Shown in pieces: positions 11 through 53,399 of a stretch of DNA of 64,000 bases. The notes below the pieces were generated by a model. The model was given only the letters and a program-made list of their open reading frames with translations, did no database searches and was not told where the DNA came from. A program made the translations under genes and the position numbers. Origin of the DNA: Somniosus microcephalus (Eukaryota); assembly GCA_052327205.1 (NCBI GenBank), contig CM126209.1:33852001-33916000 (forward strand), given 5' to 3'. Numbering within the stretch: the stretch's first letter is position 1; every line of letters starts with the position of its first letter.

Positions 11-113
11 TGTGGTACTAACCATCCTAGTGGATGGGGGATTTGGCCGACGGTACCTGGCGAGAGTGGGTAATAGGGAGAAATATCTGAAGGATGTGGA
101 GGCCTAGGAATTC
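11..113 (-). CDS. TCF7L2: TCF7L2 internal coding exon (exon 7 equivalent), (G)[33 protein letters not shown](Q)
   Basis: Minus strand reads tctctag|GA ATT CCT AGG CCT CCA CAT...GGA TGG TTA GTA CCA CA|gtaagc; 103 nt. Peptide matches vertebrate TCF7L2. Internal alternative donor TG|GTTAGT (exon end 23) removes LVPQ. Confidence 0.97.
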
Positions 114-9590: not shown

Positions 9591-9723
9591 CTGTTTTGGG
9601 GTCCACATCTGCTGGTAAGTGTGGTGGAGGGTTACCTGGTGTGAAGTGTTCATTGCTGTATGTTATCAGTGGCGTTAGCGGGTGGACATGGTGGGGGTGT
9701 TGCACAACGGGTACTTTGTTAGA
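9591..9723 (-). CDS. TCF7L2: TCF7L2 internal coding exon (exon 6 equivalent), [44 protein letters not shown](G)
   Basis: 133 nt; acceptor with branch-like ctaat and pyrimidine tract ...tctttcttttggcag|TCT, donor ACAG|gtaggt. Peptide is the characteristic TCF7L2 segment (inside ORF 9583..9777). Confidence 0.98.
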
Positions 9724-18500: not shown

Positions 18501-20578
18501 CGCAAAGGGTCCTAAGCACTTGCTTAAACACATTTACCTACTACAGTACTTCGGTTTATCTCTCTTGATTCAATCATGGAACAGTTACAGCTTTGCAACA
18601 GCAGGCCAAAATGTTCATACAAACCATCAGTCTCGCCATTAGAGTAGATTAGGATTAAAATCAGCCATCAAGTAAATGTTCCCTCTCAATTAACAAATAG
18701 TTTCATTGTCTGGGGTGCACTGTACCAGGTTTAAAATAATAAGTAAAAATGATGCTCAAACAGCAACATACGTGTTTAAAAGCAGGGGGGGGGGGAAGGG
18801 GGCACTTCAAAATGTTGCAGGGGGAAAATATTCTACAAAGTAGATTAAAGTTTTGGAATGATATGTACTATATTTAACACGCTTAAAAGATTTAGTTCAC
18901 GTCCATAATGATGCAAGTTCATACCACCTCAAAAATAGCAATTTTCTCTACAATGGAAATCTGCAACTTAAAACTCTGGACATGATTACTTCAACACCAA
19001 CAAGTTCTATGAGAAGTTAACATACATTATAATTAATGCTTTAACAATTCACACAGGAATGCTCAAGATTTGCTGTAAAATGTCCCGTCACACACTTAAC
19101 ATGTTTGCGTAGTTGTTGTTCAGATGCCAGTCCATACCAAATATGTATTTAAGTGAAATACAACCGTAACATAAAAACGTTCTGTAAGTTAATTATATGG
19201 GGGAATCACAGGGAGCATTTATCAAAAAATAATAAAATTTCAGCCTTAAAATGCTCATTTTTTTTGTTCTGGTGGTATGTTCAGAACATCTGGCACTAAT
19301 TTTGTTCATAGCAGGAAAAAGACAGCCCCACAGCAGTGGAATATATATACACAAATAAAAACCTCAACTTATATACATATTTTTTAAAAAACATCAGATT
19401 TGTTTTTAAATCCAACAAGAATGCGTAATATCAGACCCAAATCGCCATTTGGGTACGTTCTAAAATATCATTGAATGGAAGGCTTTTGTTACACTACCCC
19501 ACGGAGCACGAAGAGATGCCAAAACCTCAAAAGTGAGGTTTTCCTGTAAACTCAAAAGGACTGTTCAGAAAGGCTCTGTATATTCCTTTTTAAAATTAAA
19601 TAAAAATCTTCCGCTCCCTCACAAAAATCTAAATGAAAATGATTACATTCGATAACACCAACTTGCTGTCTAGGATTCTACAAATACCTATTATATCTGA
19701 AGAACACCATGCTTCTAATAATTTATTTAAATTATTTTTTTTATATACACTTCAAATGAGTAAACCTTCGGTACATCAAATTATGTGCAATCTTGGAAGT
19801 ATTAACGGACATTGTACAAGTTTTAAAGGGAAAGAATACAGGGCAGGGAGAAATTATACTACAGTATATACTACAGCAATATTTCTTTCACATTTAAAAT
19901 GCAAGGCGCTTTTATTTATATAAAGGAAATTAAAATATTTTGGTTTTCACGCTCTAACTGATGTCTGTGATAAGAGATAATTAAGAAAAAATGCAACTTT
20001 TTTTCTCCCCACCCCCCACCACCCCCCTCGACATGACAAGCATAGATATTACAAGAAAAAAAGCCCCGTTTTACATTGGGTTTTGTACATGATTTGCACA
20101 CTGTTGCATTCAAAACAGCTTCGATATTTGAGCTACATAAGCAACTCTTCAAGGTATCAGAGCACATCCCACTTAAATTTTAAAAGTACAATTTAACTAA
20201 ATGGAAGCATGGCAGTGGAATGTCGGAATTAGTCTGGCTACAGTTCTAAAATGTAAATTCTGCACTGCAATCTACGAGCGTAGAATATCCCGTACTAGGC
20301 AGCAATACAGAAAAAAATAAATCAGTATCGAGCTGGTTAAAGCAACTTTTCTAAAGAAAACCCAATGTCGTGCTGCCTGCAATTGGATTTTCCTTTTTTT
20401 GTTTCTTCTTCACAGAACAGATTCTTATGAAAGCAGCGACACAAAGGTCACAGTTTCAAGTGTTGGATAGAAGGTCGCTGCCTGAGCTGACCACCTCTTA
20501 ACCACAGTAACTGGCCTTATCTGAAGCCCATCGTGTGAAATAAAATACAAACGTGCACTGTAGCGTACAGTAACTTAC

Positions 20579-20701
20579 CCAGCTGTTTAGATTGAGGTGC
20601 CAGCAACCAAACTGATGGAGAAAGGAGAGCCCAGAGGCTAGCGTTCCTCCTTTATTGTTCCCTTCTTCCATTCCCAGCAAAATTGCATCCCTCGGGTACA
20701 T
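20579..20701 (-). CDS. TCF7L2: TCF7L2 alternative first coding exon of an N-terminally truncated (dominant-negative) isoform: MYPRDAILLGMEEGNNKGGTLASGLSFLHQFGCWHLNLNSW
   Basis: ggcATG start, 41 codons, perfect donor TGG|GTAAGT in phase 0, compatible with the SNKV exon. Resembles my recollection of a human short-isoform N-terminus (MYPRDA...LSFLHQFGCRHLNLNSW). Confidence 0.8.
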
Positions 20702-23700
20702 GCCGCTTTGTCTTCTGTTGTCTCTTAACCTCTACAACTTTCCCCCCCTTTCTCTCTTGCTTCGGTGCCGACTGCGCTTTGTTTCTTCCTGGTTTTTCTA
20801 GCGTCTTTTTTTTTTAAAGTACTAAAAAAAGATGTCTCAAAAGATCAAGAGCTTTCCAGTTCTGTGGCCTGGTGTTTTTAGAACCAACATCCTCATTCAA
20901 GTTTGCCGTTAGCAGCATCTTAGTCCCGGTGCAGTCCTATATCTGCCGTACAGCAAGCACCAAAATTTAGGGCACACTCAAACGATAACATAGATCACTG
21001 CACCAAAATGCTCACTTAGAAATGAGTAAGACCGCACACACGGGTGTAACCCCATGCATACTATTTATTTTCTTTTCAAAGCCTACAACTCTCCTAGGAT
21101 TACCAAAATGACAATGCTGCAACTCTATATGGAAAGGTATCAATAAGTGCAGGAGTGAAGAGACAAGCGTTGGTTAAGGGAGCATGATCAACAAACTGTA
21201 GCATGCAGTCACATCTGTGGGAATGTCAAATCCCTCACGCTGAACTTCTGGGGGTAGAGCTGCGAGAAAGCTCTTATTTTTTTGACACAGTGACATTATT
21301 ATATATATATCATACATATACACACTCACATACATATAAATATATAAAAAGACACCTGTGAGGTCTTGCCATCAGTCCCAGCAGGTTTTTTTTTATTATA
21401 ATAGAAAATAGGGGGGGAAAAAAGGCAAAGCACTAGACCTCACTGCAGCTTCTACTGGCTGACCTCGGCTACACACAATATACAAGAGCAGCTTTTGTAT
21501 TGCAAGGATTCTCTTTCGGAGTTGCTCTTTGCATACTGCTTCCCGTCGCTAATTGCATCCCCAAACAAAACCCTCTCCATCTCCAAATTGGGGGCAGCTC
21601 ATATGTTCCAGTAAATGCTTTTCACAATAGAAGCAAAAGTAATGAAATGTTCCCATTAACCCTCACCCCCCCTCCTAAGTATAGGTGGCATACAGCCCAC
21701 GACACCACCACCCCGCCCCCCCCCCCCGCAAAAAAACCCCAACTTTTTAAAAACAAACTTTACACGCGTACAGTTTTAAACTCGTTTAGTAGATTCTGCA
21801 GAACACTTAACACACTTCTTCCTCTCATCTATCCGTACTGCGCAAGAAAAGTGACAAGACACGAGAACAGGAGCAACAAAACAGTGTGCCGTTTTTCCCT
21901 CTTTATTTAGTGCCCTGCACTAATCTGGCCTTCGCGTGCAAAGTGTCGGCCAGAAATCTTTAAGGCCTTAATACCAAAACAAAACCTTTGAATTCCCTTT
22001 ATATGGTGCAATACAGGCGCTAACAAAGGCAATGAGGCTACAGTTTGACATGTAAAAAGCCCAACAACGAGGCAGCTAATTACATTCCCTCCCTCTATTC
22101 ACGGTGGCCACCACACTCCAGCAGCTTCCTTTGTCACACGTGCAATTTCTTAAGTAAACTGGGAGTTTGGTTGCTGATGATGGACAGTTACTAATCATTT
22201 AGCACAATGAGCGCTAAGTGTAGGCAGAAAGGATGGGCAACTTCAACACAGATTTCTTTGGGCTTGGAGGATGTGAGAAGAAAAAGGAGCGGGAGGAAAG
22301 CTCGCCACAGACGACGAAAGGTGAACACTTAAAATACCAGACCCTTTCAGCTCACATATTTACCTTGCATCTACTGAGGGGAGGGGGGAGGGCTGGGGGG
22401 AGATGTGGAGGGAAAGGCAAAAAAAAACTGTGGGAAAGAGAGAATGCAAATCAAACTTGCCAAGTCAGATCAACTTCAGCCATTACATCAAGCAAAAAAA
22501 AATCTGAATACTTCCTTTACTCAATAGTTTTAAAAAAGTTTTTTAAAATTGCAATTAAAATGAAACACATTCTAAAACACAATGCATCTAAGTCATCATA
22601 TTTGTCTATCTGAAATAACGCTTTTCAAAAGCATATTATAACATTCAGCCCTTCTTAAAATTTTCTAACTTACCATTTACACCTGCTCAAATTACGATGC
22701 TTCACACTGCCTGAATTCAAGCATGCTGCCGTTCCCGTGCTACAGCACAAATCAGCCAGCTCTTCATGATGTGGGCAGATCCACTGGAGGGCAGCACCCT
22801 ACCTGAGCCACTTACAGCCGAGATGCTGCTGAGATAGGGACACGAAGCGATTGCATCCAACTCCAGCTCTCCAGGAAAAGATGCTCAAGTTCAGGTCTAT
22901 TCAGTGAATTACCTTGCTTCATGGGAAAGAGATAATGAGATGGCAGCGCTCATTTGATCAGAACCAGCCCCAAACCACTCTTAGCAGTTCAGAAAGGAAC
23001 AAAAGAACAACAGTCGCTTGCTTACTTGAAAACATTAAAACCAGTTGCAGCCTCCTATAATGTTAAATCGGCTGGTACTTTGAAACCACAGACAAAAAAA
23101 AAAAATTTCCCCCCCTCACCCGAGGTATAAAGGCTAACCTACCGTTTATTTTGCCCACATAACCAGCTCAGTTAAACACACTCGTCGGGAAATGCCAAAC
23201 TATGCAATAATTTTGATACATCGATTCCAGGTAAAAAATAAAAATAAAAAGGCAACTTAGCAAGTTGTATATCTGCACTCTAATATTTGCCACAGTCGAA
23301 TGTGGCAAGCGGCTCCATAAAGCTTCACTGCCCACTTTTGAAGCCTGCGTTACTAACACACGCAGAATGACACCGCTGAGCGCCTTTAAAGGATACTAGG
23401 AAAAAAATGACTATTGATCTTCAAATGGTGATAATTGAAAAGATCAAAAGATTAAACAAAATCAAAAAAATGCGCTGACTTACCATGTTATGCTTTTTTT
23501 TTTGTTACAACTTGGTTGAAATTTCAGTCAAACAAGCTTCATCGGAGGTGTCAAATTTTTTGGCGGACTGTGATCGTATTACTTCCGCAGCCTTGCCTCA
23601 CAATACTTCAGAACTTTTTACCTAGCTTTGGTTTACTTTGAAAGCTGCAGCTCAGCAAACCAGCACAAATTATCTTGCCACCTTCTACAGCTCTGATGCT

Positions 23701-26000
23701 TTGGCCGCTAACTTTGGAAGGCCCTTTACTACTGCATCAAAATTAGCATTGTCAAAGCAGTTAATGAATATTAATACTGTATTTGTCATTGGAGCTGGCC
23801 TGATGCTGAACTCCGAGCCATCCATCAGGGACAAGATTAAGAACACAATTATTTCTGACTGACAGGGTCCAAATCTGCTAGACTTTTTTTTTTGCAATCT
23901 AAAAAAATAAGAGACAAAAAAAAAACAACATCTTATGGGTTCCCCCTGGGGACTAACAGTCAGATTAATACACTTTTAATGAAGTGAAGGCTATTAAGTA
24001 TGAAGAAAAAGCAAACAAGATGTACAAGTCGAACTTACAAATGCGGCAAGGTGGCTGATAAAAATTAAAAGAATGGCATATCTTTTTCGACAGCTGTCTG
24101 AAATTTTTCTTCAGAGCTTTCTGGAGTGAAGAAAGAATCTTTCTTCCCAAATCTGCATCATTTGAATAAGGAATGCACTGTTATAACCCACATGGGATAA
24201 TTGTCTCTATCTTACGTCTTAACAACATCAACTCAAAGACAGGATCCTAAATAATTCCTACACAAATATTATAATCAAGACTTCTTTAAAAGCAATCGAC
24301 AATCATGATTATTCTCTCAATTGCATTTGCATAAACCATGTTGCTAAAAATACTTACAAAAAAAATATAAAACGCTGAATAGACTTTGTGCAGACTTTAC
24401 TATAACCATAATATAGGTTACGAAAAATTATTTTGAAGGTATAAAAGGCCAAGTTAAAGCATATTTAGAAACCTTAGAGCTACTTTAACGCTGACAGTTT
24501 CCGTGGGAATTTGGAAAAGTCGTGAACATAGACAACAAAAGGCAACTTAGTTCAACTACATTTCTTTAGTTGCCTTTTATTTGCAGCTAAATATCACTAA
24601 AATTCCCTGTGTGTAAAGTCACGCTACTTGTCTTGATCTCAAGTAACAGAACTATAAACGCACAGTAAACAACTTTTGCCGTTACGCGTATTTACTTTCT
24701 CGCCACCTCCCGCAAGCTATTGCTCCCTGGATTTTGGTCAATTTGCACAAGATTTTTTTTTTTAAATCGGCTACAGAAAATGGCCTTGCCGCTCCTACAG
24801 GTTTCATAATGGGAGACAACGGAAAAGTTCAGATGCAGTTTTAAAGCACAAAGGAAGTTTGGGACTATAGTCATTTGAATTGCAAACCTAAAATGTTTAA
24901 TTTCTCAGCCACCCTTCAAGAATAATGCCGGTGCACCAAATATTGGCAAGCATAGAACTGGTCTTATCCCCCCGCTCACGGGGCTCATTTTCCTTTCTCT
25001 GCAATGTTAAACCTTTTAAAGCTATTTTATTTAAGAGGTGATTTAAGGTTGGGGAGGAGGAGGAGGAGGAGGAAAATAAAAAAAAGGAGAAAACTGACAG
25101 ATGCGACAGTTAATGCCATCTGACCAGTGAAACGAGGGGGTCTGGGTCAAGCGACTATGGCTGCCGAGCTAATCTACTGCTCTCACTGACCACCCCACTG
25201 GCTGCTCCTAATACCATTAGCAATCCTTAGATGAACATTCTAAATTGGAGTTTTGTCCTCCGATGAGCCAGTCTGACCCCGCTGCAACAACCCTGGAGCT
25301 CCATATGCAGATGGTAAATCTCCTGAAAACGCTTCTTTCAGCTTTAAGATTTTTTCCCCCCTTGCGCCCAGTCCTTTTTGTTTCATTCGATTCTCTTTGC
25401 CCTCTCTGATTTGAAATAAACACCACAAGCGCGAAAATGCACCCTTTTTTCTAGCCTGTTACTTGTACCATTCAGTTTCAGGAGTACGTCCGTCCTGATA
25501 CATTTCGAACAATCTATTGGTGTTTTTTTTTGTTTTACCGGTCTTTGGGTAAATTACTTTTACGCTGCGCGTTCTTAAGGGGGGGAAGAGAGGAAAAGAG
25601 AAAATGGAGGATGCTTGTGAAAACTGTCAGATTTGAAGCTTTCTAACCAAGTGAAGTTAGAGGCTGCGGACTCTGAAGCGGTGGGTGCAGAAAGCATTTG
25701 CCTGACAGAACATTTACGGCAGACAGCTCCCGCTACCTCTACTTACACAGCACGATCACATCAGCCCTAGTATCAAATTAACTCACTGACTTTGAAAGTT
25801 ATTGATCTGCTATTAAGACACTAGTGAACTTGATGAAATCAGTGCTGTAGGTGCAGTGAAGACTTCAAAGTCTCACACAGACACATAAAACAAGTTTCTT
25901 TGATCCTTTTTACGATCCGCAGAGGGTTTAAAGCCCAATTCTCGATGTGCTGCTCTTCACACTCGTCAGGTCTGATTTTTTTTACCAATAGACAGCTTGA
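20702..26000 (-). promoter_or_regulatory. Probable internal promoter / alternative first-exon cluster of TCF7L2
   Basis: Upstream of the MYPRD exon; raised CpG, several minus-strand donors (22363, 22673, 22802, 22912, 23483, 25214), TCF-like motifs and no transposons. Matches the position of the known intronic dnTcf7l2 promoters. Confidence 0.55.
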
Positions 26001-29000
26001 TAATGTTAATAGTGCATATTTTAGCAAACAACTAATTCTAAACCAATATCTTAATCTGTTCAGACAAACAGCATCATTTATTTAAACATGCCAAACAAAA
26101 ACCAATTTCACCTTTATTGCTGTCTGCACTGCAGGAATCAGGAATTAGGAATTTTCAATGCAAGCAGTGTACACAGTTCTTGCCATTTCTACATTCACTA
26201 TTTTATTAAAGAGACGACTAATTTGCGCAGACATACTGAAATCCTTACTTGAAGGATTGACCATTAATATTTACAGCAAAACACCGCAAATAAGTAAATT
26301 CATAACTTATTTTATGGATTTATTGAACAGATATACAAGTGCAGAATCTATAACTATTATTCAAAGCTACTCATTTTTTTTTTATAAACACAGAGTAGAT
26401 TTTATAAAATAGCCAAAAGGCTAAAGGAACACAATGCTATAATAACTAGCAGTACTGGCGTTAGAAAAGCAACAAAGGCATTGAAAAGTTCAAGTAGGAA
26501 ACTGCTTCATTAGATCAGGGAATGATTTTACAATAACAAAAAAATTGAAATACAAAACTCAGTATGATTAAATGGCCCTTAAATGAGTCCCTAGATCATT
26601 CATTAGGAACCACAATTATTTCTTCTACACAGAACACACAACATGTCAACTTGAAAAATTAAGATATTGGCAAATAAAATATTTAAATTATAATTTAAAA
26701 TGTTGTACACATTTGCAAAAAGACAAATTTGCAAAAAGACAAATTAATTACTTTTTTTTTACAAAGATCTGGTACACTATAACATTTTTAAATTTTAACT
26801 ATTAGAGAATTGTTTAATACTAGGAGTAGATGCAAATATTTGTATTTTTGAAGGGTTGCATTTATTGTTAAATGTATTCAGCAAAAGTGACAATTTATGT
26901 AAGCACAGAACACGTTCTCTTAATTATGAGAAATAGCATGTTACTGTAAACAAAAACATCATCAATTGCAAGGACCGCTGCCATGATTTTACCATCAAAA
27001 CCTAGAAACGGTTCATGCAAATCTCTCTTTTAGACAGTTCTCACCAAAACACTGTTCACTAATGAAATCATCTACAATACAATTCAGGAACAAATTAAGT
27101 TTTTGTACTAGCTACTGGGGTCCCACTTACAATTCTAATGAAGTCAACACTCCAATAAGATGTGTTCAGAAAGTTTCCTGGGCCACCAGCACAGAGATCC
27201 TTTTCACCAATTAGTGCAAAGAAAAAGGGGAAAAAACAGAGTGCCCGTACTCAAAGAGCTAGGCCTTACGGCAAATCTGTCATGTCGACTGAATTGATCA
27301 ACGGGACTGGTATTTCTAATGGCATCTTGTCAGGAAAAGTCAGCCATAGGGAGCCACCTGTGTTACTCTTTGCAGACAGCTAAAGAGCTAGATACCGATC
27401 TCAGGCAGCATCTTTTACTAACAATTTGGGAGAGCAGTCTGCTTTCTACTGCAGTACAACTTGTCATTCTGCAATCATCACCTGGCTCCCTTTTTTCAGC
27501 AATGGTTATAAGCTGAACACAGCTCCTCTGCAGACAGCCAATTTACCAGAAACTCGGAACATTACAAAACGGTGAAAATTATCCATTTCTAATAAAACCA
27601 ATTAATTGTGCATATCATTATGCCCATGGATTCTCTTCTCTTTAACCCCAAACAGAACCTAGATTTTACAATATAACAAGAGTACAGATGATGTGAAGTC
27701 ATTTTTGGCCAAGGAATGTTTTTCCTGGTTCAATAATACAGCATCTGAAATCTCAAGTCAGTTCTTCAGCCAATAACGTGTTCATGAACTATTTTGCAGT
27801 ATGGTACCATAAACATTATACAATATATGGACGGCCAGATATATACCAAATACATTATTGAGTTCCACAAAATGAATTACGGAAATTAGGAATCTGAATG
27901 TAAAAGCCGCTAAACGCATATATTTTTATATATATATATATTTTTTTTAGGCGGTCTAGTTTGTTAAGCGAGTCAAAAACACTTGGCTTGCAAATCACGT
28001 ATTGCAACCTTTCTTGCTCTCATCAGTCAATGAAATTCTCAGGTTCTTTTTTGCAGCCTGCGGCGGCGGCTTTGCCCAGGGACATATACCAATAGAAAAA
28101 TTTTCATCGTGTTAGCATTTCAAATGGCAGAAAGTGAAAGGAAGCCCTAACTGATCATAGCCTGCGGAATTAATTGGCTATCCTCTGAATAATGTCGCTC
28201 ACCGAATATCCTTGGGAGACGAGCACTAGCCGAGGCCACGTTTTGTGCAGCGGCTTCAAAAAAAAAAAAGCGCTTAGGGGGTATTGGCTGTCTTAAGACT
28301 TTAGCGCATTTCCCCAAAGACCAAGAAAACAGAAACAGCGAGCCTCGCCCAACTAATCCATTTGGTAATTAAACGCACAATTCCATTAAGCATTCTTCCA
28401 CCGTTTCAAAATTATGTGAACAATAGATTCCGATCGCTCTAAATTTATATGCAGGATACTATATCAATGCAATGAGCGCGGCTGGAAGCATTCGGTTTTA
28501 AGTGAGGAAAATTTAAAATATTCTCGGCTTTTGGCCAGTTTTAAAACAAAGAACTCAAGTAGACGCCATGTTGCTACTTGTTTCATTCTGTAGGATTAAA
28601 GTTTGAGCTTTTTTTCAATTCATCAAAGGATATGCAATGACCCTGCTTGATATGAGTATACCTCTCTTTAAGACACATCTTAATCTAACCTTTTTAAGAC
28701 TCTTTGCTTTCAAACTCAAAACAGCATTAAAAATAGGCATTGTTGGTCAGCCCTGGGAGACTGAGCTCCTGGCTTTCGCTGGCCAGGGCAGTGGCCCTCT
28801 GGATACACAGCTGCTTATGCGACCAAATAAGCTCTGTACAGCAAAGCAAAGCAAAGGGGGGAAAAAATGAAAAGACGAGATTAAGAATCTTCGCAAATGT
28901 TCCATCTTTCGTTATCGACTGCAGCCTAGCGTGAGGTGTCAATTTTCAGCTCTAAAGAGAGGACACAAATTCGCAGCGGTCCCATTATGCGGTCTCTTCG

Positions 29001-32000
29001 CTCATTGTATATTCCGTCAACGAAGTCAATCTTATTAACTTCCGCTCTGGTTCACACATGACATTTTCTTCAATTTTCTTGCCAACATCAAAAACATCAA
29101 TTAGCAGCTAGAAAATAGGAAGGAACAAATGACAGAGCCCGATAACGTCAACTATTTGAAACAGAGGGTAAATCTATTCTGCAGTACTGAATGCATTCAT
29201 TACCAATTCATTTTCAAAGGAGGCTTCCAAATAGCAAAGAAAATTAAATTTATCATCTAGAAATTTCCAGAAATTGTTTGTATTTTAATCCTATATCTAC
29301 AGCGTCATTTCCAAATGCAACATGAAGAAATGTTACCCAGTTTTAGGTTTACACAATGCAACTTGGGAGAGAAGTTGGAATTAGAAGGGCTCAGCAGTAT
29401 TCAGAACGCATCGAGTTACAAATAGAAACCTGAAAGAAATGTGACCGTCCGGACTTACTCCAATATTTCTACACTTTATTGACCCTACTTTCCTAAATTT
29501 AAGTTACAAGGAAGATCCCTTCATCCATCGAAATGAGACACAAATTACAAACTTAATTGCTTTGTTCAGCAGACTTTGTTTCACTGGATAACTGACATGT
29601 AGCTAAAAGTGTATCGTGGCAAACCTTGTTTTACAATACTTAAGTAAAAGCCATTTCTGCTGATGTGCCTGCTTTATGAGAAGGCTTTCATGCTTGTATT
29701 ACATCTCCTAGGGAGTGAATAAAAGCAAATTTAGTGACTGCTGAAGACGACTGCTCGGAATTAATGTGAACAGAAAAGGGCAGCTACACCAAATAAACAG
29801 ATCACTTTCCTCTGGCCATTGATTTCTTGATCTTTTGACATTATTTACGAGCTTCCTATTCTCTTTCCTGTCTTTTTTCCAATGTCACAAAGGAAAAATG
29901 TCTAAACAGCTGATGGCAGGATTATCAATTAGCTGTCAAGATTCTGCTTTCCAGCACTGAACAATACCTGCCATAATGCTGAAGATCGGTAATACAACGA
30001 GACACAGCTAATACAGTGCTCTCTGCCTATAGACTTGGATGGCACAGTGGCAAGTCTTGATGAAATTTGTGTCTCGATCATTTCTACAAATATATTGATT
30101 TAGCTAGTCGTAACCGAATACATATTGTAAATTATAATTAAGAATTTATATTTAGTATCAGATAACATTGACTTGCAAATATACATTTTTCTTCTCAAAA
30201 TATAGGGTGGTGGCAGATAGGGTGCTCGATTCTTACCGCAAAAGCTCTTGTAAACACATTCCAGTGACACTGTAATGATTTCTTTAGGTGCATGCTAGGA
30301 CCTAACCTTGGTACTTCTATGTATTCTGTTTATAAAGGGGGTGAGAAGAGAAAGAGAAAGAAGAAATGTCTTAACTTAATGATTAAGTTGGCAATAATAG
30401 TGTAATGAGGATGATTACATTCAGTCCAGCAATCGTGGTCAAGATTGCCACCAAAAGTGCAGTTCTGCTTTTAAAGACTCTGCAAGCTGTGTGTAATTAA
30501 GAGTCAGAGAAGTACAATTTATTCAGTGTTTCACTGGATCTAGGACTCTTCGTGTACAATTTAGTGTTGGCTTATAAATCATTCTAAAACAAGACCAGTA
30601 AAAGAAAATACCCCTGTAACTTGTGTTAACAGGTTTTGTAAGGTTACCTATCCTTTACAAATAAAATTTCAGTTGTAAATGTATCTATAATTACAAGGTA
30701 AGAATAGTGATGATACATAAATCATTACATAGTTAGGGGGGGGTCACAAAAAGAATAAGCTAATAATGTAAGATGATGCACATCTTAACTGACATCTATA
30801 AAAGTACGTGTTCACGTAAAATACAACAAACTTAATAAACCATTTCAATTTATTTAGCAACTGTCTGTGTGTTACTTTCAGTTTGTAAGAATCTGCTTTA
30901 GAATTTCACAATTCTTGTAGCCTTTTAAGTGGTAGAACACACATCTGGACATTGCAAGGTGCAGAAAAATTCACTGCTCAAGTGGCTTAAGTGGGTGATG
31001 TTTGGAGGTTCTGACATATTTAAAACCAATAGCACTGCTGGGTAATTCAGTCAATGTTTTATATCTGCCTGAATGTTCTGTGGCACCTAAAAAATTAGCA
31101 TGTTCCAGAAATAGTGGCTAAAGGAGCTACAAGTACTTTCAAGCATTGCCTTAGAACATCCTGGACAATAATCAGTCTGAATATATTTGGAGGCGGGGGG
31201 AGAGAAAGAATCTTCAAAGATTTTCCAGTACTTTAATATCTAGCTATCTTCGCTAAAAATTCCCTATCTGCAGTATCTTACAGCTCACCCACTACTGCAT
31301 AGAATTCTAAAATATTACTAATTATCAGAGCCACACTACGCAATGCTAAACACCAAAGTTTTCAATTTGACATGCTTTTTTTTGTTCAGTCTAACATTTT
31401 AAAATTTCTAAACCTATTCAGGGCTATTCCTTGGTGCTGCAGAAGTCAAAATCCAATGTTCTGTATAGTTATTGCTATTTTTCCTGACAATTTACATCCT
31501 TATTTGGAATAACGAACCCAAATATTTTTTTATTGTTGTGTAAATAGCAAAATGTTCATTGACCAAAAGCAGCAAACAGTAACCACAAGCTGCTGATTAC
31601 CGGCATTTGCGGTTGTGGTTCTGCACCATGATCTGTCCTTGAAACTGATGCCGCACACGAATCCATTAGGCGAGAGCATTGGTGCTCTTGATCTATTATT
31701 TACAAAGAAAACCCTCCCCTTGCTTAAGTGGCCCCTATACTTCAGCCTTCATTACAAGATCATTTTTATTCTTGTAAAAAACCCCATACTCAGTTTAATC
31801 AGGCTGATAGCACCTACACCCTACCCTGTCCAGTCTCGCTGCTTGGGATTTTTAAAAAAACTAGCATTCCTATCATAACACTGTCATTTGGAGCGCCGTT
31901 ATGTTTTTGACATCCAAAATTAAGTATAATTGATCAGCTGAGACCTTACGCCACTTGGCCTTTTTGATACAAAATTTAACAGTTTGCTGCCTACTATACA

Positions 32001-41000: not shown

Positions 41001-43070
41001 TATCTTAGCTACCTGCTTCCCCTAAGGTGCAAGAGGTTCTGAAGAGTTTGCCTGTTTACTTGGGAGGGGTGGTTGGGTTAAAGTGCTACTTCCTCATTTT
41101 CATTCATGGGTCACTTCCCCCTCAAGAAGAAAGTAGAGGGAGTATGGAATGCAACCCAAGTTTCAGAAGGCATTCCTTCATGGGATGAGGTGACACTCAC
41201 TGGCAAGGCAACCTCCTTTCATCAACCCAGATTATGCCTTTCACTGGACTCTTTTCCCTGCAGAGCCTAAAAACTTTGCTGGATTACAGATAGTCCTACC
41301 TCAACTCAAGAATCTTTAACATTGTGGGCTCAGTCACCTGAAGAGGCACCAGCCTCGGACAGTGCTTATGGTTAGACACAAAATGACTGCCATGATCCTT
41401 TCAGCTGCTGCACTAGCACTGGATTATAATCGCTGTCTTGTCAACAAGGAAGGGCATGACAGGACAGGACAAGACAGATACAGGATTCAACCATCATAAT
41501 TCAACTACACTTGCAGTTCTTGCAACCCCACTTCCTGCCACTTAGAGATTTGCGGCCCAAACGATCTTACCCCCGCAGGCACCTACACGGAACAAATGGA
41601 GGGGGTGGGGGGGGGGGGGGAGGGGTGGTTGGTGGAACAAAGACAAAAATCTACATGATCTTTTCACAGAAAACATCGCGCTTAAAGTACCTTGGATTCA
41701 GTGTTCGTTCTAATTCTTAAATGGCTGCGCGGCCCATTCAAATTTTCACGCACGCGCGGTTTCTTCTATGTAGAAACCGGTGAGCGGCCTGCATGGAATA
41801 TCTCCAGACTTTGCGGGAACGTTGCTTGGATTCATTAAGAGTGTACTGTGTGAACCGTCTAAAACAGGTCAATAAAAACATGAAGTCTTCTGCTACTAAC
41901 CTATGAGGAACGATTTGTCCCTTTAGGCTGTAAAGACAGATACAGTGCATCGCCCAACACCTTTTAAAGCACATACATATTTTCTGCATCTATAATGAGT
42001 TTGAAATAGAAGAAATCCACAAACAAGTTGCAATTTAAAATATTCGGGTAAGTTTGCTGAATTTGTGCTCCTAGCACAGAGTTGTGTGTGCCGGGAGCAC
42101 GTTTTAAGTGTTCAGACTCGAAGGCCCCACAGGATTTTTCACCTATTATCACTTATCCGACACTGTGTCACACATTTCAACTTGTATCTAATATATCTGG
42201 GCGGGCCAATAATTATTTTTTAAAAGAATATTTAGAAGGCAATGATGTCCAAAACATTAATTTTAAAATTTTAATTAAAAACTGGCTGCTTTATGATAAA
42301 TTAACAGTAAGGGCAGAATACGAAGGTTCATTCATACTCAACTTGCAATACACACAAAAGCATAACCAAGTGTTGTCCATTCCAGCTAACATCGGAATTT
42401 CCATCCTGGGACTCCCAGTCACCAGCCTGTACGCATGAATATTTACTGACTAGGTCAGTAGAATCATAGTGTTACAATGTATGTGCTTACACTGCATGAA
42501 TGGAGAAAACTGCAAGTGCAAATCAGATGAAATGCGCATCACTTCTGTAACCTAAAGGGATGATATGATTGGGATCAAGGCTGAAAGGAGATAAAGCTGA
42601 AAACAATATGGATATCTGGTTAAAAAAAAGTTAGCTCGAAAAATCAGAATTTCTTTCAAGACCAAAATGAGGTGAGGAAAGGGAAACTGGATAACTAGAG
42701 AAAGGTAGAACTGGGTCAAGAGCAGTTGACTTTAAATAAACAGGTTCGCACTGCTTTATGATTCTACCAAATAACACTCAGCTAGATGACTTCATCTAAC
42801 AATGGACCCACACAATTTTCCAGTGAAATGCTATGGTGTCATTTTCAACAGAATGTTTCTCCAAGTAATAGACTCAAGGCAACATTGAAGCTGAGATGAA
42901 GGCACCCTGGATTTGTGTCAGGGCTCCCTTTGAGAGCTGCAAATGTTGGCAATGCTGTTTAAATAACTATAACCTAAATGAAGAAATAGCCAATCCAAAA
43001 TAATATTTTTTTAAACTATATATTCTAAATATGAGAAACAACTACAATAGCTCATTTATCTATCTATCTA

Positions 43071-43760
43071 TCTTCTATATATATATATATAAATAAAAGG
43101 ATACTTCTGTCTGTCATTCCATCTGTCTGTCTTGAATAAACTCGAAAGTTATGGAGCGTACCTACACGTGCGTTACGTCGAAAGAAAGCTGACAATTCCA
43201 GAACCGTCATAAGCGTATTTACTTTTCGGTCGGACTAAAATTGTTCGCGCGTTATGCAAAAAACCTTCAAAATTAAACTCATTATCTGCTAATAGCATTG
43301 ATTGACTGACGTCAAGGTCGACCAATCCTGTGCCGTCACGATTGACCAATCCTACAGTTCAGTCGCCTGATGGTTGGCCAATCACTGCGTCTGTGGGTGG
43401 GACTAATGCTTTTCAACTCGGGCATCGGGCAGCCATTGCTTCACTACTTCCAGCTCAAAATCTGCTAATCCAGCTTCTAAAAAGTTAGTATCTCTTTTAA
43501 AAATAACATCACATTTACCAAAAACGTTTTATAAGTACTTTCACTTTCATCTTTGAAGCTATTAAAAAAGGTAGAAATGTTGCCCGGCAGCAGATTCACA
43601 GAGGGACACAGAGACAGGCCCCAAAGCCTGGGACTCGATTTAAAACGTTGCCCGGCAGCAGATTCACACAGGGACAGACAGACAGGCCCCAAAGCCTGGG
43701 ACTCGATTTAAACTGCCCGGCCCAAAACAGCCCTGGCAACGCCAGGGCCCCCCCAGCTAG
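43071..43760 (+). mobile_element. Non-autonomous Helitron
   Basis: 5' A|TC followed by TATA-rich and CTGTCTGT motifs; 3' hairpin GCCCTGGC-AAC-GCCAGGGC (43730-43748), then CTAG|T (43757-43761); no TSD; CpG-rich; internal 68-bp tandem duplication (43579-43721). The 5' TC could alternatively be at 43059. Confidence 0.82.
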
Positions 43761-44599
43761 TTATATATATTAAAAGTGACTGGCTGCAACATTCCAATGG
43801 AATTACGTCTGCTTGAGCATCACGTTATGTGACTCAATAAGTAGGACAACCCCTAACCTTACACGACAGTTTGTTTAATGCTCCTTCCACCCTCCAGTCA
43901 TTGAGAAGTGGCAATTTAAAAAAATATATATATATTTTCCAAGATCCCTTCTCCAAAATTCGAAAATTCTCCAGTCAGGTTAAACTTCATCTAACCACCA
44001 AATAATTTAGCCCCGCTGTAATTCCAAAGGCACGTTTTCAGTTGAAGCAGCAGAAAGCACCTTCAGAATCAGGCCCTCATTTAAACTACCCTGGCACAAA
44101 GCACAGTGAACTTTAAAAATATTGTTACGACCTTGAAGCGATGGGTAAAATCTCACCAAGTGCCTGTCCTAAAAACACCCCGAGGAAAGCTAACCTTCAC
44201 AAGAAGAAAACTGCTATTCTGTGCACCGCACCTCCCCATCCCCTCCGCCACTTCAAATGGAGACGGAAATGGGCTTCATGCAACTCCCCTTCCCCCACTT
44301 TGAAGAAAATGGTCTCTGGCTCACTGCAGCACCCCCCCCCCCCAACCCCCACATAAGGAAAAAAATGAAAAAGAAAATCAACCAATGCCACCCATCCTTC
44401 TTCCCCATCCCTCTCTTCTCCCTCACCCCACCCCCCTCGCCGTCTCCCCTCCCATATGCCTTCCCAAGTCCAGGTATCGCACCTTCTTACCCTGCTTTAC
44501 CTGAATACTGCACTGGGTCTCGACTTCCCGTGTGTAACGCCACAAGAGATCGATCGGTAAATTATAATCAAGATAAAACATTAGCTCTTATGAGCAAAT

Positions 44600-50970: not shown

Positions 50971-53399
50971 ATTGCTTCAGTTAAAAATCTAAATTCATTT
51001 TACACTATAAACTGTGATAGAGAGGAAAATTTGAAACAGCCAAGAAATATGGCCAGCCACACCCCCTCCCCCACCCCAGCCACTTTATTCCCTTCTTTTT
51101 CTGTCCGTACTGCAAATGAAACAGTTGTGACTGTCCTAACTACTGACTCCTGTTTACCTAAATGAAAAAATAAGGCTCTAAAACAAAAAGTTTGAAAACT
51201 TCCAAGTTTGCTATTTTACTTTTTTTTTAAAACACCCCACAACACATTTTTTCCACCAAAGGAACCACCTTTCATTCACATGAAGAGTCGCACCCCAGAC
51301 AGGTCCCATAAAAATGACTACAGTTGCACTGGAGACAGAACAGTATAGATAGGATGTGAACTATCGCCAGTCATGTATTTTGTTGTCTAAATATTTTCAC
51401 CCCGGTACTGAAACTCGAGCTGCTGCCTGCAGGTGACATTCTAAATGTCCAGTCACTTCCCAATACGCTTCTACAGCCCAAGAGGCCACAGGGATTTAAA
51501 TTCCTGGTGACACCGGCCCGCCTCTAAACTGGTTTACTGTACTCTGTGTACAGAAGATATAACAAAATAGATAAAAGTCTCTTGCAATTAACTTGTAGAC
51601 ACGAGGAGCTTCATGATATCAAAAGCCAACAGTTACAGTGGAAGGGCGCGGAGACATTTTAAGCTTTTTATTGAAAGAGAATTCCATTACAAAGGAGAGC
51701 GTGTTATTAATGGAGCTTACTGGAGCACCACTTCTGCATTTGTTCAATAAAAACTTAAATTCGCAAAATCAGTTTTTTTTTTTTTTTTATAAACGCATGC
51801 GAGACTACTTTGAACAGAAGATTTCCAAAGCTGCTTCAGGTTAGCCTAGTGTGTGTGTATGCCATGCAGCAGAGATAAACCCAGCCCTATAGACCCAGAG
51901 TTACATCCGCACATTCTGAAATTAACCCCAAACTGCTATGGAGATTCTCAGGAATAGTGAAATGTATTATAATGTCATACTTTTCATCTTTACACACATT
52001 TTGCACAATCTCTTTGATGGGTGATGGAGAAACATTTAATTAAGTGTTTCCCCACCCCACGAATAATGGGACACAATCATTGCCGGTCAAGAATGGTTAA
52101 GAGAATCAGAGGGAGCTGGGTGGGGAAAGAGTAGAAAGCAGGGACAATATGTCAAGTTTGGAATATGAAAATCAGCTGTATAGAGGAACATTCAATGTCT
52201 CGCCCAAGTCTCTACGCCAAACCTATTTCATCACTCACCATCGAACTTTCCCAGGCCACTCTCGTACAGGGTGAAGGCACAGGCTGCTGCGGATCATCTT
52301 ACCAAGTGCCCCTTCACCACATGACCTTCCAAATTACCCACTGGCTTTGGCTTGACACTAATTGGTAAACCCGCTGAACCATATCGAGGCAAACAAAAAG
52401 ACACCTGGAGTTCTGTCAAAACATGTCATCGGTGAAAACTGAACATTATAAATGTGCTCAGACCCGCCCTGAAACAACCTGGGGTAAAATTTGCGAGAAG
52501 AATGGGGTAAGTATAACCTACAGGAAATTCTAGAATTCTGCACTTGTATCCAGATTATATGATTCTGAAATTCAGGTTAGATCCAACAATTGGAAAGAAT
52601 GTGCATTTGTACTTCCTCACTGGCGGGTTCCTTTACTATTCAAACATCTCTGCATGATAAAATGGAAAGTTGACTATAATAAAAGTAGCTCTGAATAGCC
52701 TTTCAAAAATAGCAGATCAAATTTCACTTTAACATGGGACTGCAGGCAAGTAACTGAAACATGGGATTCTCGGCTCCTGCTACTGTCAGAATTTCTAGAT
52801 TTAACGAAGAATGTGCTTTTTTTTTTTTAATCATAATTTGTAATGTTATGTTTATTTGTTATAGTGTGAATGTCAATCCAAAACTTTGCAATAATTATTT
52901 TTGCATTAAATCAATGGTATATTGGAATACAATCTAAAATCTAACCTGTAAGATTTCAACAAAGTGCCTAAAAAGCCCTCACAAGAGGGAAGTCTATAAA
53001 ATAAATCAATTCACTTCCCATACAAGCCAATGCCTTTTACCAGCATAGTTAGTCCAAGGTCCAGAAGGTGTATGCCTTCATTAACTGCCTGAAGCACTGA
53101 ATCACACAAACTGTTAATAATTGACAAAGAATTGCTTCACCTTGCTATAAACCAATTCCATATAGCCACCGATTCTCAACATTAAACCCATTTTCATGGT
53201 AAAACATCAACTGATTCAAAGTATCTTTATTAGCACTATACTCCTCACCTAGAAGAGTTTAACGTGGGCTTCTCCCAGTAGGTAAATGTCCCATGTGGTA
53301 TCATGCCATGCCTTCAATTACCGGCCCCAACCCTCCACACCAATCTTTCCCATTCTCGCGTTCCCTTGTAAAGTCCTCTGAAACACGAGAGGTGCTAGA

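Follow-up and report, generated by a model that had tools for sequence, protein, structure and literature searches.

The TCF7L2 locus of Somniosus microcephalus

The DNA analysed here (the window) is a stretch of 64,000 nt from the Somniosus microcephalus assembly GCA_052327205.1 (CM126209.1, positions 33,852,001-33,916,000), and all coordinates given below are positions within it. Its minus strand carries part of a chondrichthyan TCF7L2 gene, the large intron 5 together with coding exons 6 and 7, and we are concerned with candidate alternative first exons in that intron, two of which would end in a start codon placed directly at the 5' splice site. The numbering of introns and exons is that of the mouse literature, so that all sequence above 9723 is intron 5; exons 1-5 gave no tblastn match in the window and lie outside it. 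Exon 6 (9591..9723, minus strand, SNKVPVV...) begins at a common phase-0 acceptor, ttggcag/TCT AAC AAA at 9723 (the slash marks the splice junction here and below), as proposed in an earlier sequence-only reading of this stretch, and exon 7 (GIPRPP...LVP) lies at 11..113 on the same strand. The exon 6 peptide is 100% identical to the TCF7L2 matches listed in the protein search, the exon 7 peptide is identical to the TCF7L2 of Callorhinchus and Hemitrygon over 34/34 positions, and both peptides are of the TCF7L2 type as opposed to TCF7L1, TCF7 or LEF1. The HPSD variant of exon 7 was seen only in chondrichthyan TCF7L2 sequences (four rows of a published table and the chondrichthyan matches found here).

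The main frame of exons 6-7 runs through 78 codons with no Met, in keeping with the sequence-only reading, which had however overlooked four out-of-frame ATGs, at 9689, 9653 and 9608 in exon 6 and at 25 in exon 7, with A, G, C and A at -3, respectively. The next in-frame Met follows 105 residues downstream, after LVPQ, where the helper co-repressor exon ends (exon assignment from PMC9303524; this and the other articles cited here are drawn on in excerpt). As no Met stands in the main frame of exons 6-7 and the Met at +105 comes after four out-of-frame ATGs, a first exon that is spliced to exon 6 must bring its own in-frame start, which could come with a peptide or consist of nothing but an ATG at the donor.

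A first exon of the former kind is the MYPRD exon, whose coding part (20579..20701, minus strand) has 41 codons (MYPRD...NSW), ends in phase 0 and is followed by the donor TGG/GTAAGT. Its peptide is identical at 38/41 positions to that of isoform X18 of TCF7L2 from the skate Leucoraja erinacea, where it is fused directly to SNKVP, and at 25-30 of 41 positions to carp, reptile, bird and mammal isoforms. We compared it with a set of 137 named proteins, consisting of 115 of the 120 matches listed (the best 120 of 3843) and 22 of 120 listed proteins shorter than 265 residues; the set is made of 90% cluster representatives and leaves out unnamed records (5 and 98 of the 120, respectively). The MYPRD peptide is present in 13 of these proteins, from carp to chimpanzee; two read through the donor and 11 are joined to SNKVP at the same point, the joins being annotation models. 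A MYPRD-bearing version beside the Met-only forms, as the sequence-only reading had it, is therefore backed by an annotated junction to exon 6 in 11/137 proteins, from skate to chimpanzee. L. erinacea X18 and Pan troglodytes isoform 29 use the same exon and the same junction, 20701-20579 to 9723, as the window; they add 41 residues, whereas the candidate exons described below would add Met only. Since its identity ranges from 60 to 93% from skate and carp to mammals, the peptide is suggested to have a function of its own, and no naming of it was found among the papers listed in the literature search. The Pfam label PF08347 sits on the truncated MYPRD isoforms although their N-terminal exons are absent, and does not imply beta-catenin binding. 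Other short N-termini of gene models (e.g. Crotalus, Limosa, Fukomys, Apteryx) had no match in the window.

Start codons at candidate 5' splice sites in intron 5

The minus strand has two copies of the 9-mer ATGGTAAGT (ATG/GTAAGT) and no more, with the ATG at 23486 and 22676, 810 bp apart; the plus strand of the window has none, so that the repeat reported by the sequence-only reading is real. We ranked all 3886 GT sites of the minus strand with an approximate scoring matrix, and both sites came joint 4th, above the real donor of exon 6 (7th) and that of the MYPRD exon (24th). Since exon 6 starts in phase 0, a donor directly after an ATG yields M-SNKVP, and either site joined to 9723 indeed reads M-SNKVP in frame, as a matter of sequence capacity. 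Together with the MYPRD exon, the candidates are located on the sense strand, 10.9-13.8 kb upstream of 9723.

The two sites differ in the context of their start codons. The site at 23478..23486 (minus strand; ATG 23486-23484) has A at -3 (aacATG), and the nearest ATG upstream opens an open reading frame of 4 codons that is closed ahead of 23486. An A at -3 had been claimed for the other site as well and is not found there: at 22668..22676 (minus strand; ATG 22676-22674) the base is T (taaATG), with an in-frame TAA directly before the ATG. From these contexts 23486 appears the better candidate, and 22676 would initiate weakly. A third donor had been proposed at 25217 (25209..25217, minus strand), where ATGGTATTA (ATG/GTATTA) is located; it ranks 754th of 3886, has C at -3, and 0.3-0.7 copies of its motif are expected by chance, and it probably stands outside the system. 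Transcription, splicing and initiation would be probable at 23484, marginally favoured at 22674 and improbable at 25215. Overlooked by the sequence-only reading was another strong site, ATG/GTGAGT at 52233..52241 (minus strand), which is the 10th strongest donor of the gene strand, has T at -3 and lies 42 kb upstream of exon 6; an ATG 59 nt upstream is out of frame, and its frame runs through the donor. The 52241 site may be a remote first exon, or it may simply be a chance occurrence that serves as a control.

Between the ATG sites and the MYPRD exon there are also fairly strong minus-strand donors without an in-frame Met, at 22364, 22803, 22913, 23026 and 23120, which are candidates for non-coding first exons by analogy with the extra exon 5' forms of mouse.

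The repetition of ATGGTAAGT is by itself weak evidence, and the context of the two sites is stronger. Between 0.28 and 0.45 copies are expected per strand (Markov orders 0-4). For a pair within 810 bp anywhere in the window, P is 0.001 with the exact 9-mer, 0.004 with ATG/GTRAGT and 0.049 with ATG/GTRAG, the motif having been picked post hoc. The window has three sense G/GTAAGT sites, and they are confined to a stretch of 2.9 kb (P about 0.006). One of them is the MYPRD donor; in the other two the G is part of an ATG, a proportion for which P is 0.024 once G at -1 is given. Five antisense G/GTAAGT sites, on the other hand, are spread across 47 kb. More broadly, the interval 20.6-29.5 kb takes in 9 of the 14 sense GTAAGT hexamers (p 0.0003 in a scan test of 9 kb width); of the 24 combinations of motif, strand and width in the scan test, three with sense GTAAGT and one with sense GTRAGT were below 0.05, and none on the plus strand. 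The CpG observed/expected ratio is 0.54 in 19-30 kb vs 0.35 elsewhere (p 7e-5). The internal promoter and the cluster of first exons likely occupy the zone 20578..29458 (minus strand), which is rich in sense GTAAGT and in CpG. Local duplication was rejected as the origin of the repeated site because the flanks are unrelated, their alignment score of 21 equalling the random median of 21.

An element conserved between shark and birds lies at 23688..23825 (minus strand), leaving 204 bp between it and the 23484 donor downstream. Translated from 23825 to 23688, it matches the N-terminal ends predicted by two gene models from birds (Turdus rufiventris and Hirundo rustica) with 91% identity over 46 positions; because a stop closes the window frame at the point where the bird models continue, it is probably non-coding, a promoter or enhancer that gene predictors have made into a false-looking exon. 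The element contains four TAAT/ATTA cores, a number not above background as 12% of equal windows reach four, and it is a candidate for a Vax-responsive sequence. Counts of TAAT, TAATYA and polyadenylation signals showed no enrichment in 20.5-26.5 kb.

Some further features of the window were recorded. TCF-type sites (CTTTGWW, both orientations) number 11 vs 5.6 expected in 20500-26500, a weak indication of possible autoregulation. The CpG observed/expected ratio reaches 0.95 at 28001-28500 and 0.82 at 43001-44000, against a background of 0.38, and these stretches are possibly further conserved regulatory elements. Intron 6 contains a 30-bp tandem repeat of 22 copies (1935-2594) and intron 5 a two-copy tandem duplication of 68 bp (43575-43712); no tandem repeats were found in the cluster close to the ATG donor sites, and a window-wide comparison with Rfam gave no match to structured RNA.

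Comparison with the dominant-negative TCF7L2 system of mouse

In mouse brain, dominant-negative TCF7L2 (dnTCF7L2) is made from the intron 5 promoters Ex1b-e (PMC6147171, PMC3468386, PMC3429047); it has also been reported in Xenopus (PMC4963812), and its promoter is activated by Vax homeodomain proteins (PMC11969957, PMC9981622). Long reads from mouse brain revealed at least 10 alternative first exons, termed exon 5', which are neuron-specific and supply roughly half of the transcripts in brain (Qi et al. 2023, PMC10208975). Numbers 2-9 of these exons span about 6 kb, and their deletion abolishes the short protein and impairs vocalisation (PMC10208975). According to a chordate survey, novel exons at the position upstream of exon 6 give rise to at least two TCF7L2 isoforms with a truncated N-terminus (PMC9303524). 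The Ex1b-e system involves the same gene and the same intron, with several first exons spliced to exon 6 and a product without everything before exon 6; the window case differs in coming from a cartilaginous fish and in being known from sequence only, and its candidates and the MYPRD exon span 2.9-4.6 kb, compared with about 6 kb for eight mouse first exons (PMC10208975). The short isoforms of LEF1 and TCF7, also from intronic promoters, start at a Met inside the shared exon III (PMC9303524, PMC4963812). In TCF7L2, unlike in LEF1 and TCF7, novel exons precede a Met-free exon, and each first exon must therefore supply its own start codon.

In light of these likenesses, we favour with reasonable confidence the reading that 23484 and 22674 are 5' splice sites of first exons in an intron 5 cluster, the shark counterpart of mouse Ex1b-e and exon 5', and on sequence grounds it is likely that both ATG/GTAAGT sites belong to this dnTCF7L2 first-exon cluster. 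Transcription would begin a short distance upstream of each ATG donor, the first exon would be spliced to exon 6 some 13-14 kb downstream, and the initiator Met would be the last three bases of the first exon. The product, M-SNKVP..., would have lost the beta-catenin-binding N-terminus and kept LVPQ, the co-repressor regions and the HMG box, and for this reason it would be expected to occupy Wnt response elements and repress. Under the established rule of N-terminal processing, a protein starting with Met-Ser would be expected to shed the Met and to become acetylated. The sequence and its frame, the identity of the gene and the conservation of the MYPRD exon and the upstream element are observed in the window; the promoter cluster and the repressor function are carried over from the mouse literature. 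Gene identity, a truncated repressor and several internal first exons that share exon 6 as their acceptor, all put forward by the sequence-only reading, agree with the protein matches and with the published mouse work.

Published data on start codons and protein size bear on how the Met would be supplied. That any intron 5 first exon contributes Met only was not found stated in the literature searched and may well be in print, in the primary mouse description or in figures. Broader literature searches on Met-only first exons in general yielded nothing pertinent. Neither MSNKV nor MYPRDA occurs in the papers listed in the TCF7L2 literature search, and MSNKV and MYPR are absent from the PMC9303524 supplements, which list longest isoforms. 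The excerpts of PMC6772062, PMC7473649, PMC3581223 and PMC12516193 contain nothing on start codons of intron 5 first exons, and the text excerpts of PMC10208975, an article that does not cover fish and whose figures may already show the ATGs, give no start codons or N-termini of exon 5' forms. The short TCF7L2 protein is of 35 kDa and lacks the first 161 residues (PMC3429047), and in many of the full-length isoforms among the matches listed SNKVP is preceded by exactly 161 residues. On gels the ratio of short to full-length mouse TCF7L2 is 35/58 = 0.60 (PMC3825142). We computed mass ratios to full length of 0.65-0.69 for the Met-only form, 0.73-0.76 for the MYPRD form and 0.42-0.48 for a start at the +105 Met. 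The gel ratio is closest to the Met-only form, a soft argument as it concerns mouse and gel mobility is not mass.

Alternative explanations and implications

Several observations weigh against both sites being first-exon ends. A further 295 9-mers are likewise present exactly twice within 20-810 bp, ATG/GTRAG is similarly frequent on the two strands (3 on minus vs 2 on plus), and clustering is not significant for the looser motifs GTAAG and GTRAG, its significance being tied to the full GTAAGT hexamer. A comparable strong ATG donor, 52241, is found outside the CpG-rich cluster, no TATA-like motif was found within 500 bp of 23484, and 22676 has several closed upstream open reading frames inside 500 nt in addition to its weak start context. 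Met directly before SNKVP was found in none of the 137 named representatives, where a Met-only form, 40 residues shorter than the MYPRD form, would probably be absorbed into clusters; none of the 22 named proteins shorter than 265 residues starts with M-SNKVP. Three listed short proteins that start at the Ser of SNKVP are partial models and uninformative.

Part of this evidence fits the explanation that the two sites are not exon ends but chance motifs, or docking sites for the U1 small nuclear ribonucleoprotein (U1 snRNP) past an internal promoter, with the MYPRD exon as the only real first exon. Docking of U1 snRNP downstream of a promoter suppresses premature polyadenylation. Beside the closely repeated 9-mers, the missing M-SNKVP form and the 52241 site, this explanation draws on a P of just 0.03-0.07 for two or more copies of the 9-mer and on the poor exonic flanks of six of the nine clustered GTAAGT sites. 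It does not account for an ATG at -3 to -1, which docking sites have no use for, and it sits badly with two sites that score above the donors of exon 6 and the MYPRD exon in a region where mouse uses at least 10 donors; we consider it unlikely, while giving it some weight.

That the donors are used but the ATG is incidental, as splicing favours G at -1, or that the ATG at 22676 is mostly skipped, with the protein coming mainly from MYPRD or from the +105 Met, is in our view doubtful. ATG is present at 9% of G/GT sites anyway, MYPRD is the sole form found in the protein sets, and 22676 would have T at both -3 and +4 after splicing, but 23486 has its A at -3. A start at +105 would be preceded by the four out-of-frame ATGs and would lose LVPQ and the helper co-repressor exon (PMC9303524), and the mass ratio it predicts falls short of the 0.60 on gels. 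It is very improbable that the sites are the ends of cassette or poison exons internal to the full-length transcript, e.g. a 155-nt exon 22828-22674 causing a frame shift and decay, as the weak pyrimidine-AG sites at 22828 and 23898 that could serve as acceptors barely clear a loose filter, and the mouse long-read exon 5' transcripts are without exons 1-5 (PMC10208975).

The arrangement of first exons is not new: the dnTCF7L2 promoter cluster is already known, and the shark has most likely kept an old copy of it. Only tentatively would we suggest that Met-only exons go back to before sharks and mammals diverged and have been under selection as such, several promoters ending on ATG/GT to make one invariant repressor; the idea stems from the out-of-frame decoy ATGs of exon 6, which would waste a first exon without its own start. 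If it were true, the base at -3, A or T, together with upstream open reading frames would set the protein yield of each promoter, and the conserved 41-residue MYPRD peptide would mark a functionally distinct second repressor.

Taken together, the system in the window is not of a new kind: the shark arrangement would work like, and by its position and the MYPRD anchor belongs to, the known dnTCF7L2 cluster. The finding offers single-base targets for asking which first exon makes which protein. If the exons are used, exact start codons would be named for a Wnt repressor of the brain on which vocalisation in mice depends (PMC10208975), and the multi-promoter dnTCF7L2 switch would date to the common ancestor of jawed vertebrates.

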